From Candidatus Methanophagales archaeon (lineage in GTDB: Archaea; Halobacteriota; Syntropharchaeia; Alkanophagales; Methanospirareceae): a stretch of 29,459 nt of DNA. The position numbers were made by a program, and so were the translations under genes. Position 1 is the stretch's first letter. Each line of letters begins with the position of its first letter. Positions 5,050-10,351 of this stretch are shown here, in pieces. The DNA lies in the NCBI GenBank assembly GCA_003601795.1, contig PIXU01000001.1, positions 1-29,459 of the forward strand. Direction: 5' to 3'. Under the pieces are notes generated by a model. That model did not search any database and was not told the DNA's origin. It was given only the letters and a program-made list of their open reading frames with translations.

Positions 5050-5120
5050 AATTGATTTTATGATTTTTATTTATATTCAATTCAAAACTGGAATATAAAA
5101 AAACGATTCATGAGTCAGAG

Positions 5121-5243
5121 ATGACGAGATATGATGCAATAAAAGCAGTAGCGGAATTTCTGGATGAAGAGGCTGTTGTTTCCAATATTGGCGAACCAAG
5201 TAAGGAATTGTATGAGATTAGAAATAGAGATCTAAACTTCTAG
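5121..5243 (+). pseudogene. comE: Remnant of sulfopyruvate decarboxylase beta subunit/domain (ComE; coenzyme M biosynthesis)
   Basis: Translates MTRYDAIKAVAEFLDEEAVVSNIGEPSKELYEIRNRDLNF*. This matches the ComE N-terminus (VVSNIG.PSKEL...DR..NF) but stops just before YMLGSMG. The frame is also open upstream (KLEYKKTIHESE), possibly the linker of a fused ComDE. Not in the ORF track. Confidence 0.75.
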
Positions 5244-5565
5244 CGCGCAACTATCGAGGGTTTGTATGACAATAAAGACCGAGAGTCATTCATGTAATAG
5301 TGAAAACGGGAAGTGCAGGAATGAAGAACATAAAATTGACATCATGGCAAATAAAGAGAAGATTTATGAAGGCTATACTTTAGCGATACTCTCCTATCTC
5401 GCATAGTATAGAATTATCTCTTATTCATATTTTGCTTGTCGTTTATTATACAATAAGACAATCTAATAGACAAAAATAGAAAAATTTAAATACTTGCAAG
5501 TAGAAAAGAATATTTATGTATATAAAAACGCATGATAGTATAGAAGAAATTAGGAGGTGATTAGT

Positions 5566-6597
5566 ATGAAAAAGAGAACCGCAATTATAGGGGGAATAAT
5601 GGCTGTAGGAATAATTGCAGTAGTGGTTTTTGGAATTGGATGCATAGAAGAAAAAGCTCCAGCAGAGATGACTACACTCAACATTGGCTATCAACCAAGC
5701 ACGCATCAAATCGCAGCGATGTTAGCATCCGAGAAGGGATGGTGGGAAGAGGATCTGGCGCAATTTGGTATAGAAAAAATTACAATGAAGGAATTCCCTT
5801 CAGGACCGCCAGAGATGCATGCAATGCTTGCTGGAGACCTTGACGTAGCGTATGTAGGAGTTGCGCCACCTATTGCGGCGATATACGAAGGTTTAGATGC
5901 AAAGATAGTTGCAGGCGTCCAGACTCAGGGGTCCGCGATAGTTATCCGCCCAGAGCTCGCGGATGAATACGAGGGGCCTCTTTCTTTAAAGGGCAAGTCG
6001 ATAGCCACCTTTCCAGCAGGGTCGATTCAGCATACAATCCTTTCGAAATGGCTTTTAGATAACGGAATAGACCCGACTGAGGACGTAGATATAAAAGCAA
6101 TGGGACCGAGCGATGCTGCTACTGCTATTGGAGCTAAAACCGTGGATGCTGTCTTTCTCCCCAGTCCGACACCTACAATAATCGTAGAGGAAGGGAATGG
6201 AGTAATTGTTGAATGGTCGGGTTCAATGTGGCCAGACCATGCATGCTGCTGCTTGGCTGCGAGTGGAAAAATGATTAGGGAACACCCAGAGATGCTTAAA
6301 CAGATAATAAAAACGCATATACGTGCCACAGAGTACGAGATCGAGCATCCCGAAGAAGCGGCAGAGATTTATGCAAAGTGGGAAAATGCAAATGTATCAA
6401 CGATAAAGCACTCAATAGACGCAACGGATATGCACTGGATTCACGATCCACATCTTGAGGTAGAATCGGGTATCGAATACGCGCAAGTCATCTACAACCT
6501 AAACAAAGAGAGATATGAGGGAAAGGGTATTGAAATGCTTGAGGAAAAAGACATCTTTGATACCAGCTTTTATGACGAGGTAACGGGGGAAAAATGA
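5566..6597 (+). CDS. ABC transporter substrate-binding lipoprotein 1, SsuA/TauA/NMT1-like
   Basis: SD GGAGGTGA precedes the ATG at 5566. Signal peptide ends in a lipobox-like GIGC. Motifs IGYQPSTHQ, EFPSGPPEMHAMLAGDLDVAYVG, GKSIATFPAGSIQH. Confidence 0.9.
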   Translation: MKKRTAIIGGIMAVGIIAVVVFGIGCIEEKAPAEMTTLNIGYQPSTHQIAAMLASEKGWWEEDLAQFGIEKITMKEFPSGPPEMHAMLAGDLDVAYVGVAPPIAAIYEGLDAKIVAGVQTQGSAIVIRPELADEYEGPLSLKGKSIATFPAGSIQHTILSKWLLDNGIDPTEDVDIKAMGPSDAATAIGAKTVDAVFLPSPTPTIIVEEGNGVIVEWSGSMWPDHACCCLAASGKMIREHPEMLKQIIKTHIRATEYEIEHPEEAAEIYAKWENANVSTIKHSIDATDMHWIHDPHLEVESGIEYAQVIYNLNKERYEGKGIEMLEEKDIFDTSFYDEVTGEK

Positions 6598-7367
6598 GGC
6601 TGCCAGCGAAAGAAAAAGGGCTGTGGTCGGTTCCTCTAATCACAGTCCTTCTCCTCTGGGAGTTTACGGCGGGATACGTGATAAAAAATCCGTTAATGTT
6701 GCCACGCTTCTCCGCCGTTATTTTTTCCATTTATGCGCTTAGGAATGTTTTGATTGCTGATATGCTCATCAGCCTTCTTCACTTTGGTATAGGGCTGGCA
6801 TTGGCATTTGCCGTAGCACTTCCTCTGGCAATTGGTATGGGGTGGTCCAGGAACATATTCAAAGCTATTGACCCAATCATTGAAATTCTGAGGCCAATAC
6901 CCCCTCTCGCATGGATACCCATTGCAATGATCTGGTTCCATCTGACGCACTATGCCGCGGGGTTTATCATATTCATCGGTGCATTTTTCCCAATCTTAAT
7001 TGACAGCTATACCGGATTTCGCAATGTGCCAAAGGTGTTGGTAGAGACGGGTAAAGTGTTAGGATGCATAGGTAATAAAAAGCAGATAAAATATGTTGCT
7101 TTTCCCTATGCGCTTCCTTCTATTGCTACCGGCACTCGCATAGGAATGGGAATAGGATGGATGTGCGTAGTTGCAGCGGAAATGTTCGGAGTTAGTGATA
7201 GTGGACTTGGATATCGCCTATTCCAGAAATTTTACTTTCTACATCAGATGGATTACGTGGTAGCGTACATGCTTGTTTTAGGGCTGGTAGCACTATGCTT
7301 AGACCGCTTATTCAGATATTTTGTAGAGGATAAACTATTAAAATGGAAGAAAGGGATAGTGAAATGA
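6594..7367 (+). CDS. ABC transporter permease, SsuC/TauC-like
   Basis: Multiple TM helices, LRPIPPLAWIP, FFPILI, EAA-loop region, IGMGIGWMCVVAAEM. ATGA overlap with the upstream gene. Confidence 0.92.
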   Translation: MRLPAKEKGLWSVPLITVLLLWEFTAGYVIKNPLMLPRFSAVIFSIYALRNVLIADMLISLLHFGIGLALAFAVALPLAIGMGWSRNIFKAIDPIIEILRPIPPLAWIPIAMIWFHLTHYAAGFIIFIGAFFPILIDSYTGFRNVPKVLVETGKVLGCIGNKKQIKYVAFPYALPSIATGTRIGMGIGWMCVVAAEMFGVSDSGLGYRLFQKFYFLHQMDYVVAYMLVLGLVALCLDRLFRYFVEDKLLKWKKGIVK

Positions 7368-8533
7368 GAAATAAGGATATTACCAGGTTAAAAATTGGCT
7401 TACTCTGCAAAGGGCTAAAAGTGAATCCAAATGCGAGATATTATCCTGAGATAGTACCTGATGGATATGCTGGAGGCGGGAAATCAAGAGCGGGGGTTGC
7501 GGGAAGTGGTAAAGATTTCATTTTAGATTCTGGAGAATCCTGTAATATAGGCGTTTTACAACCATTCCTGGAAGAATCACCTTTTGAATTCAAGATAATA
7601 GATAGCGAGGGGTGGATACTAAAAGAGGGTAAAAAAGCTATTAGAGCTACGCTAAGGGAGCCGAAATGGCATTCTACCCACTTATTCAACGAGATACAAT
7701 TGCATGGAAAAGATTCTCTTGCAACTGCGTTATCGAATTTCTGTATTTATAAGCAACAAGGAGAAGACTGCAAGTTTTGCATAATTGACGTTGGTGGAGA
7801 GATAGTGATTCATGAACCGGAAGATATTGCAAGAGCAATACAGGAAATAGAAAAGACTTCAGAACTCAGGGCATGCTATAATATTGAAGATAAATACAAT
7901 CCAAACCTCACAGAGCAAGAGCTCGAAAAGAGGAAAAAATATGTGGAACCGAAGGATGTAAACATAAATTCGGGGACGCTGAAAGACGCAGTAAGAGATT
8001 ATAAAAAGACAATTTCTGCTATAAAAGCAGTTAGTGAACTCCCGATTGGTATACAAATTTGTCCAGTCGAACCCGATGAAATGGAAACTCTTTATTCTGC
8101 GGGTACTACGGAAATCAGCTTTAATTTAGAGGTTTATGATGAGCGTGCAAGAAAAGAAGTAATTCCGGGGAAAAATAGGGATAATTCGGCAGCGGATTAT
8201 TTAAAGGCTATGAGCGAAGCGGTAGGGATATTTGGAGATAATCAAGTGGAATCGTGGATATTGATAGGACTTGAACCAAAGGAGAAGACCATTGAAGGAA
8301 TCAAAGCGATAGCAGAAGCTGGTGCAATACCATTGCCAAAACCTTTCAGACCTTTGTATGGGGCAGATTATGAACGAAAGAGACCTCCTACTTTGGAAGA
8401 CGCTATTGTAGTCTATGAAGCATGGCTGGATATGATTAGAGATTATGGATTGAACCCATTAAAAACGAAAGCAGGTTGTGGCAGGTGTAACGGTTGTTTC
8501 CCATTACATGAGTTGTTGAAATATGGCATTTAG
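7364..8533 (+). CDS. Radical SAM protein with a CX8CX2C motif, MSMEG_0568-like
   Basis: LHGKDSLATALSNFCIYKQQGEDCKFCII (CX8CX2C), N-terminal SRAGVAGSG...ESPF, C-terminal AGCGRCNGC. ATGA overlap with the permease stop gives the start at 7364. Confidence 0.8.
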   Translation: MRNKDITRLKIGLLCKGLKVNPNARYYPEIVPDGYAGGGKSRAGVAGSGKDFILDSGESCNIGVLQPFLEESPFEFKIIDSEGWILKEGKKAIRATLREPKWHSTHLFNEIQLHGKDSLATALSNFCIYKQQGEDCKFCIIDVGGEIVIHEPEDIARAIQEIEKTSELRACYNIEDKYNPNLTEQELEKRKKYVEPKDVNINSGTLKDAVRDYKKTISAIKAVSELPIGIQICPVEPDEMETLYSAGTTEISFNLEVYDERARKEVIPGKNRDNSAADYLKAMSEAVGIFGDNQVESWILIGLEPKEKTIEGIKAIAEAGAIPLPKPFRPLYGADYERKRPPTLEDAIVVYEAWLDMIRDYGLNPLKTKAGCGRCNGCFPLHELLKYGI

Positions 8534-8556
8534 AAAAGTGATTGGAAAGAGGTAAC

Positions 8557-9576
8557 ATGAAAAAGATAGCAGTTATAGCAGTTGAGATAATAATTGCAGC
8601 AATAGTAATTACTATTGGAACTCATTTTTATCTTCTGGCTGCGCCTACAACGCTTACCATAGGATATCAGCCAATCAACCACCACACAGCAGCGATACTG
8701 GCATCCGAAAAAGGATGGTGGGAGCAGGACCTTGCGAAATTTGGCATAGAAAAAGTCGAAATGAAAGAGTTCCCTACCGGACCTTCAGAGATGCACGCAA
8801 TGCTTGCTGGGGATATTGAGGTGGCTTATGTAGGTATGGCACCACCAATTTCAGCTATGTATGAGGGTTTAGATGCAAAGTTAATTGCAGGTGTGGAGAC
8901 CCAGGGAGACGCATTAGTTGTTCGTTCGGATCTTGCTGATAAATATGAAGGACCCCATTCTTTAAAAGGTATGACAATAGCAACCTACCCACCTGGTTCG
9001 ATTCCGCATACAATCCTCTCAAAGTGGCTTTTGGATAATGGGATAGATCCGGAAAAGGATGTAGATATAAAAGCAATGGGACCGAGCGATGCTGTTACAG
9101 CTATGGGAAGTAAAGCAGTAGATGCTGCTTTTATCTGCACTCCGTATCCTTCAATGATCGAAGAGGCAGGATATGGGATAATTGTGACGGTGGGAGGCGA
9201 GATGTGGCAGCATCATGCGTGCTGCTGTTTAGTTGCAAGTGGCGAAACAATTAGGAAACATCCTGAGGTGGTTAAGCAAATAATCAAAACGCATATTCGC
9301 GCCACTGAGTACATAAATATGTATCCTGACGACGCAGCAGAAATTTTTGGGAAGCGGTACAATATAAATGTAAAAACGATAATGCACTCACTAAACGCAA
9401 CTGGTATGCGCTGGATTCACAACCCGCATGCAGAGATAGAGGACGGGCTCGAATATGCGAGGGTCATTTACGAGTTGAATAGGGAGAGATATGAAGAAAA
9501 GGGAATTGAAGTACTCGAAGAAAAGGATATTTTTGATACCAGCTTCTACGATGAAATAAGAAGTAAAAAAGATTAA
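8557..9576 (+). CDS. ABC transporter substrate-binding protein 2, paralog of 5566..6597
   Basis: GAGG precedes the ATG at 8557. N-terminal TM anchor without a lipobox Cys. Collinear and highly similar to binding protein 1. Confidence 0.9.
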   Translation: MKKIAVIAVEIIIAAIVITIGTHFYLLAAPTTLTIGYQPINHHTAAILASEKGWWEQDLAKFGIEKVEMKEFPTGPSEMHAMLAGDIEVAYVGMAPPISAMYEGLDAKLIAGVETQGDALVVRSDLADKYEGPHSLKGMTIATYPPGSIPHTILSKWLLDNGIDPEKDVDIKAMGPSDAVTAMGSKAVDAAFICTPYPSMIEEAGYGIIVTVGGEMWQHHACCCLVASGETIRKHPEVVKQIIKTHIRATEYINMYPDDAAEIFGKRYNINVKTIMHSLNATGMRWIHNPHAEIEDGLEYARVIYELNRERYEEKGIEVLEEKDIFDTSFYDEIRSKKD

Positions 9577-9577
9577 A

Positions 9578-10351
9578 ATGAACCACAAACTTGAAATTCG
9601 GAATCTAACGAAGACGTTTAACACAGAAGACGGTGAAATGATGGCATTGGAAGACATTAGTATAGTAGTCAAGCCAGCTGAATTTTTGTGTATTATAGGG
9701 CCTTCGGGATGTGGGAAAACAACGCTGCTGAGAATGATAGCGGGTTTAGACCACCCGAGCAGTGGAGGGATTATTTTAGATGGGAAAGAGGTGAAAGGAC
9801 CTTCTCCGGATAGGGGGATGGTATTCCAGGAATTTTCGTTATTCCCATGGAGAACGGTTTTGAAGAACGTAGAATTCGGATTGGAAATAAAAGGAATGAA
9901 AGAAAAAGCGCGGAGAGAGATTGCAGAGAGATATATAGAGCTTGTAGGGCTAAGAGGCTTTGAAAATTGTTATCCATACGAACTTTCTGGAGGTATGAAG
10001 CAACGGGTAGCGATTGCTCGCGCGCTTGCGACTGACCCTGCGATTTTATTGATGGATGAGCCTTTTGGATCGGTGGATGCACAAACGAGAAACATACTTC
10101 AGGAAGAGCTGCTGGAGATTTGGAAAAGGACAAAGAAAACTGTTCTGTTCGTAACGCACAGTGTTGACGAAGCGGTATATCTCGCTGATAGAGTTGCAGT
10201 GATGTCTGCGAGACCGGGTTGCCTTATTAAGTGCCTTGATATAGATATACCGCGACCGAGGAAGCGAACGAGTGTAGAAGCGAATGCGTTCAGAGAGCAG
10301 TTGCTCATGTTGCTCCGCTTAGAACGTTCAAAGGCGTGTATTTCGGTTTAA
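9578..10351 (+). CDS. ABC transporter ATPase, SsuB/TauB/NrtD-like
   Basis: Walker A GPSGCGKT, Q-loop VFQEFSLFPW, signature LSGGMKQR, Walker B LLMDEPF, H-loop FVTHSVDEA. Confidence 0.95.
   Translation: MNHKLEIRNLTKTFNTEDGEMMALEDISIVVKPAEFLCIIGPSGCGKTTLLRMIAGLDHPSSGGIILDGKEVKGPSPDRGMVFQEFSLFPWRTVLKNVEFGLEIKGMKEKARREIAERYIELVGLRGFENCYPYELSGGMKQRVAIARALATDPAILLMDEPFGSVDAQTRNILQEELLEIWKRTKKTVLFVTHSVDEAVYLADRVAVMSARPGCLIKCLDIDIPRPRKRTSVEANAFREQLLMLLRLERSKACISV

Follow-up and report, generated by a model that had tools for sequence, protein, structure and literature searches.

Why should an importer operon carry, among its own genes, a radical S-adenosylmethionine (SAM) enzyme and a second receptor? 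The question is posed by a stretch of 29,459 nucleotides – the window – from a Candidatus Methanophagales archaeon of the ANME-1 group of anaerobic methanotrophic archaea: positions 1 to 29,459 of contig PIXU01000001.1 in GenBank assembly GCA_003601795.1, a metagenome-assembled genome (MAG). Here a substrate-binding protein (SBP1), a permease, a radical SAM enzyme (rSAM), a second binding protein (SBP2) and an ATPase are encoded, in that order, at 5566-10351. An earlier note on this DNA had read the five genes as an ATP-binding cassette (ABC) importer with two receptors and an embedded enzyme that acts on the imported ligand. Our data lead us to a different emphasis. The reading we favour, with a probability of roughly one half, is that of an ANME-1 importer of coenzyme M (CoM), ssuA-ssuC-ssuB, into which an uptake-and-convert cassette for a CoM-like sulfonate has been inserted. 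The order of the genes, the orthology of the transporter, its link to CoM, the family and fold of the enzyme, the cassette nature of the two extra genes, the remodelling of SBP2 and the recurrent linkage of enzyme and importer are matters of observation.

The transporter and its link to coenzyme M

Evidence for the identity of the transporter came firstly from its family and from its nearest characterised relatives. Both binding proteins exceed the 163.5-bit cut-off of TIGR01728 (SsuA_fam) – SBP1 with 189.3 bits, SBP2 with 177.5 bits – and both also match NMT1_2. All three core subunits are orthologous to the SsuABC system of Methanosarcina: SsuA, SsuC and SsuB of M. acetivorans are 54%, 55% and 57% identical to SBP1, the permease and the ATPase, respectively, and the M. 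acetivorans ssu locus has the same A-C-B order together with the H-A-C-C and G-W-M-C motifs seen in the window. Loss of ssuC is said to confer resistance to bromoethanesulfonate. The ssuC guide RNA of a published study (PMC10750270) maps to positions 73029-73051 of a 5.8-Mb Methanosarcina genome, inside the published ssuC deletion interval. In M. acetivorans ssuA/ssuC have been termed 'the CoM-specific ABC transporter', and CoM starvation induces them together with cs, comDE and hdrABC (PMC12068725).

A second line of evidence is synteny with the genes of CoM biosynthesis. In about 30 genomes of the window's family – the Methanophagales (ANME-1) – the coordinates of ComE and SsuA matches place comDE immediately upstream of ssuA; because the two matches are adjacent in so many genomes, comDE-ssuA-ssuC-ssuB can be regarded as a conserved cluster. 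In the window a decayed remnant of comDE lies upstream of the operon (Table 1), and at a related locus, L009, comDE is intact and passes both TIGR03845 and TIGR03846. The importer itself is common: among 401 genomes sampled from the phylum, 186 have a homologue of SBP1, and in the window's family 49 of 54 genomes have one.

The transporter is marked, moreover, by conserved cysteines. SBP1 carries the motif H-A-C-C-C at 6240-6254 and the permease G-W-M-C at 7158-7169, and the same motifs recur in loci L077-L087, from ten genomes of methanogens and ANME that belong to several families. Across ten SsuA loci inspected in other families, H-(A/P)-C-C is present in all nine binding proteins found and W-M-C in seven of the nine permeases. 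Cys191 of the permease is alanine in the solved structures of NrtB and CmpB; every rSAM-linked permease keeps the cysteine, as do 8 of 10 SsuC genes scanned in methanogens. These residues of SsuA and SsuC may recognise the thiol of CoM, and they provide a lead to how that thiol is recognised. They also parallel the CC and selenocysteine (Sec) positions described for the SAO system, to which we return below.

An arrangement of the same transporter in a different setting was seen in an Archaeoglobales MAG (L046, G005:C11:163000-176000), where ssuA (with the CC motif), ssuC (with W-M-C) and ssuB form a string on one strand with cfbE-cfbD-cfbB. The string is flanked by atwA (component A2 of methyl-coenzyme M reductase, MCR), mmp3, a fused marker 5/6 protein and marker 2. 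Given the cfb, atwA, mmp3 and marker genes around it, this CoM-type importer sits within a gene cluster for F430 and MCR support.

The state of comDE in the window genome raises the possibility of a need for imported CoM. A tblastn comparison with the intact L009 ComDE resolves the remnant into three out-of-frame pieces, corresponding to residues 186-236, 334-344 and 346-383 of 383. No second ComE was found in the MAG, and ComE is present in all 22 high-quality genomes of the family; nor were ComA, cysteate synthase or an MMP16 above cut-off found in this MAG, which is 75% complete. Given that degree of completeness, CoM auxotrophy is a lead rather than a finding; the organism may need to import CoM or one of its precursors. 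Presence of the cassette and decay of comDE do not go cleanly together: genomes G342 and G168 (the latter the source of locus L011, G168:C81) have both intact, and G237, it seems, lacks the cassette and has comDE in fragments. Short ComE matches at G237:C92:70-465, G237:C116:2004-2261 and G202:C117:8089-8439, with frames of 99-136 amino acids as against about 385, suggest that comDE has decayed in other family members as well.

The inserted cassette

A critical issue is the status of the two genes that the Methanosarcina operon lacks. Extra rSAM and SBP2 genes were present in none of the ten SsuA loci inspected in other families, and within the window's own family rSAM occurs in four of 66 genomes and is absent from the remaining 62. 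The most direct evidence comes from the MAG itself, in which contig C175 (L043, 621-6505) carries a second ssuA-ssuC-ssuB copy, 94%, 94% and 90% identical to that of the window but devoid of rSAM and SBP2: the stop of ssuC is followed by the start of ssuB within a few bases. Because ssuC abuts ssuB in this copy, the two additional genes constitute an insertion placed exactly at the ssuC/ssuB junction. The copies on C1 (the window) and C175 are either paralogues or derive from two co-binned strains, contamination of the MAG being 4.2%. What had been taken for an importer built with two receptors and an enzyme within it is thus better described as a common three-gene CoM importer with an rSAM/SBP2 cassette inserted in a few genomes. 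Beyond ssuB, the C175 copy is followed by genes for a TauE/SafE-family membrane protein, a transporter of the major facilitator superfamily (MFS), a 155-residue protein of no known kind and a small CbiX (a CfbA-like chelatase).

The identical five-gene order is found in four other records (L009, L010, L011 and L027), and this recurrence, along with linkage in further lineages, argues that the arrangement is not the product of chance. Wherever the cassette is whole – in the window, L009, L010 and L011 – the ATGA overlap and gaps of 1-23 nucleotides are kept; L027 retains the order only, its rSAM being split into two open reading frames (ORFs) of 134 and 196 amino acids by frameshift, decay or sequencing error. 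Two of the records belong to GoM-Arc1 (Ca. Ethanoperedens), and in these the five-gene operon is 75-86% identical to that of the window, as against about 55% for the Methanosarcina ssu genes. The disparity suggests, from sequence comparison, that the five-gene unit moved laterally between ANME-1 and GoM-Arc1. The GoM-Arc1 copies additionally contain an SBP2-like fragment of 81-88 amino acids between permease and rSAM, which is probably a recombination scar.

The rSAM clade is rare – 71 homologues in a search of 5.8 billion proteins, and 26 loci in a scan of about 185,000 species genomes (one genome per species) – and its members have an SsuA-type transporter or binding protein as neighbour in five archaeal and bacterial lineages, with gene orders that differ. 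In Bathyarchaeia the order is permease-SBP-ATPase-rSAM, with an overlap; in two bacterial lineages it is rSAM-permease-SBP-ATPase; in Dehalococcoidia a close relative of SBP1 (327 bits) is divergent from rSAM. In Archaeoglobales rSAM overlaps the gene for a 283-residue SsuA-like protein which, having neither signal nor anchor, appears to be a cytoplasmic partner. The SBPs beside rSAM in Bathyarchaeia, bacteria and Archaeoglobales are without the Cys motif. Taken together, these linkages identify an SsuA-fold protein, usually with a whole importer, as the most constant partner of rSAM. The earlier note had proposed a functional tie between enzyme and importer and had staked the proposal on homologues being conserved next to such a transporter: the linkage is indeed conserved across five lineages, and the expectation fails for homologues in Methanobacteriaceae, which occur without the transporter.

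The wider neighbourhoods of these homologues vary. At two of the four Archaeoglobales loci the rSAM pair adjoins a corrinoid protein, a URO-D family (MtaA-type) methyltransferase, MtrH, RACo and an MFS transporter; at the other two it adjoins genes of BtuF/FecCD/CobN type. The corrinoid/URO-D/MtrH-like/RACo set (L030 4149-11951; L031 9998-18537) resembles methoxydotrophic or methylotrophic methyl-transfer systems. Among Methanobacteriaceae one set of neighbours comprises a Cys/Met pyridoxal phosphate (PLP) enzyme, ThiI, Thi4 and MOSC, and another MFS, DUF5518, LigB-like, rhodanese and pirin proteins.

The enzyme and the second receptor

That rSAM belongs to the radical SAM superfamily follows from an invariant three-cysteine motif and from its fold. 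The barrel core of an AlphaFold (AF2) model, with a mean confidence (pLDDT) of 89.6, superimposes on HydE, PylB, LipA, BioB and HydG (TM score about 0.42, E about 1e-7). Its family is that of the variant enzymes of NF045502, which it matches with 145.4 bits over residues 72-365 (cut-off 125; 140.6 bits in a six-frame search of the genome). The score against Pfam PF04055, 25.2 bits, falls under the 29.5 cut-off, as expected from the variant spacing of the cysteines. The earlier note had discussed the enzyme in terms of the MSMEG_0568 family, to be checked by HMM search. This placement we could not sustain: rSAM reaches 123.9 bits on TIGR04043, in two stretches, where the cut-off is 303.7, and the low score and the missing partner genes together rule out membership. 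The absence of those partners had been recognised before; AIR-synthase-like, GNAT and nitrilase genes are lacking from the annotated parts of the window, and no sll0787-type AIR-synthase-like, GNAT or Nit6803-type nitrilase gene is present among the named or clustered neighbours of the 26 related loci. P0078, a representative of the sister clade, does have an AIR-synthase-like neighbour. The MAG encodes a second variant radical SAM enzyme on contig C98 (L038/L044, 3-1724, minus strand), which scores 247 bits against TIGR04043, the copy being cut short where the contig ends, and whose gene immediately follows that of a HisA/HisF-related protein (TIGR00734).

The cysteines of rSAM are arranged as the earlier note had described, in a CX8CX2C motif (C134-X8-C143-X2-C146) and a second, C-terminal CxxCxxC (C379-X2-C382-X2-C385). 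The former had been thought atypical; it is a normal trait of the group, the motif pair being present in 93 of 119 superfamily representatives. With C22, the two triads make seven cysteines that are invariant in 19 rSAM homologues down to 46% identity and complete in the ANME-1 homologue P0009 (83%). Such invariance makes a second, fully cysteine-ligated cluster possible, and to judge from the sequence rSAM probably does hold a second iron-sulfur cluster with four cysteine ligands.

Only one named protein matches the fold over its full length. This is BciD, with TM scores of 0.71/0.70 over residues 14-394 at 18% identity; the other full-length matches are unnamed AFDB clusters, a sequence search of the PDB gave no match, and attempts to name superfamily representatives via cluster look-up, the ESM Atlas and AFDB clusters were uninformative. 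BciD carries out the O2-independent double hydroxylation of the C-7 methyl group of bacteriochlorophyllide (PMC7242693). By BLAST, rcc02237 of Rhodobacter capsulatus and sll0785 of Synechocystis are paralogues of BciD (PMC3613366), and rcc02237 is IsrB (WP_013067946.1) of the isethionate reductase system IsrBHDK: anaerobic isethionate assimilation requires it, together with an SsuCAB importer and IsrHDK, which is nitrogenase-like (PMC11423573).

SBP2 is 66% identical to SBP1, and the differences are patterned. Across five operons 20 positions are fixed within each type of binding protein yet differ between the types. A canonical majority can be called at 12 of the 20: the nine canonical SsuA proteins agree with SBP1 at 11 of these and with SBP2 at one. 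Residues on which all nine agree are replaced in SBP2 (S45I, T46N, S123D, Q155P, S218G and S301D). The anchor motifs (GYQ, FPxGP, VG and GS) are nonetheless kept. In SsuA of Xanthomonas citri the sulfonate is bound by Gln36, Gly68, Gly86 and Ser141 (PMC3839906). The equivalents of the first three – Q43, G80 and G98 – are conserved in both SBPs, as is the Gly-Ser that precedes the Ser141 position, which is itself occupied by isoleucine. The altered positions 45/46 and 155 of SBP2 directly flank the equivalents of Gln36 and Ser141. From this pattern we infer that SBP2 is still a sulfonate receptor, for a different side chain; more speculatively, an amino group might be accommodated by the three acidic residues that SBP2 has gained.

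What the cassette may do

Substrate, reaction and physiological purpose are predictions. In the mechanism that we envisage, SBP2 would dock on the shared SsuC/SsuB translocator and deliver a small, CoM-like sulfonate that the canonical receptor refuses. In the cytoplasm rSAM would abstract a hydrogen atom from the imported compound; the substrate radical would then be oxidised or hydroxylated without O2, in the manner of BciD, with electrons passing to the auxiliary cluster, and the product would join the CoM pool. A hydroxylating radical SAM enzyme consumes one SAM per turnover, and for this reason the role of the cassette would have to be one of low-flux salvage. Two reactions are candidates. 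Isethionate or taurine could be converted to sulfoacetaldehyde, the normal product of ComDE; alternatively, the alpha-carbon of an S-alkyl-CoM could be hydroxylated to give a hemithioacetal, which would resolve to CoM and an aldehyde. Sulfoacetaldehyde and sulfide can yield CoM even abiotically (PMC12068725).

The earlier note had named salvage of a sulfonate or cofactor fragment among its examples: the direction was right, the transporter being the orthologue of a methanogen CoM importer, and the exact substrate still belongs to the realm of prediction. A bolder version of the proposal makes the cassette a new route of CoM salvage, in which SBP2 would take up isethionate or taurine – abundant environmental sulfonates – or S-alkyl-CoM leaked from alkane-oxidising neighbours, and rSAM would turn these into sulfoacetaldehyde or CoM. 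In so specific a form the proposal is unlikely. Were it true, de novo synthesis of sulfoacetaldehyde would be dispensable, in keeping with the decayed comDE of the window genome, and a first reaction would be assigned to the IsrB-type branch of the radical SAM group.

Several observations weigh against the CoM-linked cassette. Simple dehydrogenases and aminotransferases already make sulfoacetaldehyde from isethionate and taurine, and rSAM seems an expensive means to the same end. The chemistry of the rSAM clade is a prediction for all of its members; the role of IsrB itself is still termed obscure (PMC13474568), and the relation of rSAM to IsrB runs via their shared similarity to BciD (PMC3613366, PMC11423573). 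It is from genetic and transcriptomic work on Methanosarcina that SsuABC is taken to be specific for CoM. As to the bacterial members of the clade, their SBPs are of a different subfamily that lacks the Cys motif, and we know of no use of CoM by their hosts. Finally, four Methanobacteriaceae genomes encode rSAM homologues 63-70% identical to that of the window and have no ssuC homologue at E<=1e-10, from which it follows that rSAM is not strictly dependent on the importer.

The same evidence can be read in other ways, the nearest of which is that the cassette supplies sulfur: rSAM would cleave the C-S bond of an imported sulfonate and release sulfite, for example by hydroxylating the sulfonate-bearing carbon, as an O2-free counterpart of SsuD/TauD or of IsrB-IsrHDK. 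An enzyme inside a sulfonate importer operon is, after all, the layout of ssu and tau, and IsrB is required for the release of sulfite from isethionate (PMC11423573). Sulfur-transfer genes (rhodanese, ThiI, NifS/NifU and the Cys/Met PLP enzyme) neighbour the Methanobacteriaceae homologues, a TauE/SafE gene follows the rSAM-less C175 copy, and desulfonation would be useful to the bacterial hosts. For the archaea in question, however, the benefit is hard to see: ANME-1 and GoM-Arc1 inhabit sulfidic sediment and have little need of sulfonate sulfur, and sulfite poisons archaea that metabolise methane. IsrHDK-like genes are missing from the immediate neighbourhood – the sole nitrogenase-like cluster found is on another contig, without rSAM – and comDE synteny puts the transporter in the context of CoM supply, not sulfur starvation. 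We consider desulfonation unlikely; the operon probably serves to provide cofactor, not to scavenge sulfur. Less likely again is a role in maturation, with rSAM modifying F430, a corrinoid or the neighbouring SBP (for instance at its Cys motif). Such a role would be consistent with the action of BciD, the best fold match, on a tetrapyrrole side chain, and with an SBP-fold protein as the most constant neighbour. It would also accommodate the many cofactor genes in the vicinity: cfbE upstream in the window, cfbE-cfbD-cfbB beside atwA and mmp3 around the Archaeoglobales ssuACB string, the small CbiX near the C175 copy, and the corrinoid or BtuF/FecCD/CobN genes at Archaeoglobales rSAM loci. But an enzyme found in four of 66 ANME-1 family genomes is not the maker of a family-wide methylthio-F430, and homologues 55% identical occur in bacteria that have no F430; on these two grounds methylthio-F430, or any other modification of F430, was set aside as the principal explanation. 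The cfb adjacency, besides, is a matter of the transporter, not of rSAM, and close relatives do not share it, and with rSAM-adjacent SBPs devoid of the Cys motif in Bathyarchaeia, bacteria and Archaeoglobales no common protein target is apparent.

Family searches pointed in a further direction. The best NCBIfam matches of permease and ATPase are SaoP and SaoA, with SaoX second-best for both binding proteins, and the SAO system, like the window, has two SBPs, CC motifs and Sec or Cys in the permease (preprint 10.1101/2022.07.06.499078). The operon might thus import a thiophilic metal (nickel for F430, for example), an organometal or a sulfur species, to be processed by rSAM; H-A-C-C-C does resemble a metal site, and cfb genes are nearby. 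Yet all of the scores fall below cut-off (SaoP 141 against 295, SaoA 288 against 360, SaoX 74 and 95 against 300) and the partner genes SaoL, SaoE, SaoT and SaoC are absent from the window, which led us to reject membership in the SAO system. Published work assigns the orthologous Methanosarcina system, with the same Cys motifs, to CoM, and the cysteines may simply recognise the CoM thiol. A nickel importer – suggested by the Cys-rich pocket and the cfb neighbours – was demoted once this orthology was established, and SAO-like import in general we hold to be very unlikely. The slimmest chance we allow to rSAM and SBP2 being mere passengers, inserted or decaying, in a process unrelated to the importer. 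Sporadic distribution, the split rSAM of L027 and the Methanobacteriaceae homologues without a transporter would all be explained, but translational coupling is kept in the window, L009, L010 and L011, the seven cysteines persist in P0009 and down to 46% identity, and independent linkage to SsuA-type genes in five lineages is very unlikely to arise by chance in a family so sparsely distributed (26 loci, about 185,000 genomes). An idea involving the thiamine pyrimidine, which arose from the NMT1/THI5-like fold and from ThiI/Thi4/PdxS neighbours, was also discarded: those neighbours occur in one Methanobacteriaceae subset only, and the SBPs are orthologues of SsuA.

The favoured reading – a CoM importer with an inserted uptake-and-convert cassette – would have consequences beyond this locus. 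CoM is indispensable for methane formation, for methane oxidation and for archaeal alkane oxidation, and little is known of how ANME and alkane oxidisers that have not been cultured obtain it. Should the reading be correct, some ANME-1 and the ethane-oxidising GoM-Arc1 share an add-on, apparently laterally transferred, that widens the range of the CoM importer and converts the compound taken up. It would furnish a first substrate class for the BciD/IsrB/MSMEG_0568-type group and would bear on the role of IsrB in anaerobic isethionate use. The system is directly testable: CoM-auxotrophic strains of Methanosarcina exist.

Layout of the locus and relation to known systems

ORF calls agree with the gene order, and with the overlaps and gaps of no more than 23 nucleotides, that had been reported for 5566-10351. 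SBP1 and permease overlap by ATGA, as do permease and rSAM if the latter starts at M8, the start used by most homologues; rSAM and SBP2 are separated by 23 nucleotides (ATG 8557) or 8 (TTG 8542), and SBP2 and the ATPase by one (Table 1). Other genes of the window – CfbE, Mch, MoaC and FwdABC – are those of a methane-metabolising archaeon; cfbE lies 1.3 kb upstream of the importer operon.

Table 1. Coordinates of the operon, its upstream features and the altered cassettes of related loci (window positions unless a locus is named).
Feature	Position	Strand	Remarks
ssuA1 (SBP1)	5566-6597	+	canonical CoM-type binding protein; N-terminal membrane anchor; H-A-C-C-C motif
ssuC permease	6594-7367	+	BPD_transp_1; conserved G-W-M-C motif
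radical SAM enzyme (rSAM), BciD/IsrB-like variant	7364-8533	+	alternative ATG start 7343
ssuA2 (SBP2), diverged second binding protein	8557-9576 (ATG)	+	alternative TTG start 8542
ssuB ATPase	9578-10351	+	ABC_tran
comDE (fused sulfopyruvate decarboxylase), decayed remnant	5088-5380	+	tblastn with intact L009 ComDE
operon leader, conserved, with putative promoter	5410-5565	+	TATA-like TTTAAATA at 5485-5492
GoM-Arc1 SBP2-like fragment / split rSAM	L010 4295-4561; L027 9759-10004 and 10022-11121

The operon is preceded by a conserved leader: about 150 nucleotides 5' of ssuA show some 84% column identity between the window, the C175 copy (L043 479-627) and L009 (upstream of 4754), though the flanking comDE differs. 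The conservation extends 5' of the TATA-like box. No riboswitch or known RNA family in Rfam matched this leader, and a search of the genome for second copies of the promoter block returned generic A/T-rich matches only. The block may serve a CoM-responsive regulator as its operator.

Nitrogenase-like genes, the partners of IsrB, were also sought. No NifH- or NifD-like gene is present in the window or at related loci. Elsewhere in the MAG, contig C248 (L039, 1-8556) carries two NifH-like and two NifD/E-like genes interleaved with three SAM-dependent methyltransferases, and with Avd-like four-helix-bundle and NosD-like beta-helix proteins; this is a nitrogenase-like system, and no rSAM is adjacent to it.

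In the literature searched we found no description of the arrangement as a pathway, in agreement with the earlier note, which had not recognised it. Neither a BciD/IsrB-type rSAM with a dedicated second receptor inserted in a CoM importer, nor an association of the rSAM clade with SsuA-fold proteins across domains, is described there. What is already known is that importer operons can include an enzyme for their substrate, as do ssuEADCB and tauABCD, and – by genetics – the CoM importer itself. Like ssuEADCB and tauABCD, the window operon has an enzyme inside the importer operon for its (predicted) substrate and a receptor of the SsuA family; unlike them, it has two receptors and an anaerobic rSAM in place of a flavin or 2-oxoglutarate oxygenase. 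The closest parallel is SsuABC of Methanosarcina, with which it shares gene order, subunit identities of 54-57%, the Cys motifs and an association with comDE that is one of co-regulation there and of synteny in the window's family; the difference lies in the rSAM and the remodelled SBP that stand between ssuC and ssuB. The SAO system of Clostridioides difficile and other anaerobes (10.1101/2022.07.06.499078) resembles it in transporter family, in having two SBPs per permease and ATPase, and in Cys (or Sec) in the binding cleft and permease, but the window has no MerB-like, ArsP-like or thioredoxin-like partners and no selenocysteine.

For the enzyme the comparisons are of a different order. 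BciD, the bacteriochlorophyllide c C-7(1)-hydroxylase of green sulfur bacteria (Swiss-Prot N0DKX5), shares the full-length fold, including the N-terminal beta domain. Its low sequence identity to rSAM, the lack of any transporter context and a bacteriochlorophyllide substrate that these archaea do not possess set it apart: neither the close kinship nor the bacteriochlorophyll c/e pathway that would define a BciD is found in this ANME-1 host, and by analogy rSAM might resemble BciD in chemistry at most. With the TIGR04043 family (MSMEG_0568/sll0785, of the Nit1C cluster) rSAM has in common the superfamily NF045502 and the pattern of CX8CX2C and CxxCxxC, but it falls short of the family's cut-off and lacks the partner genes; the enzyme encoded on C98 is the closer relative. 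IsrB of R. capsulatus offers the likeness of a BciD-like rSAM, of C2-sulfonate use and of an SsuCAB importer in its own locus. It differs in working with the adjacent nitrogenase-like IsrHDK, of which there is no counterpart next to the rSAM of the window.

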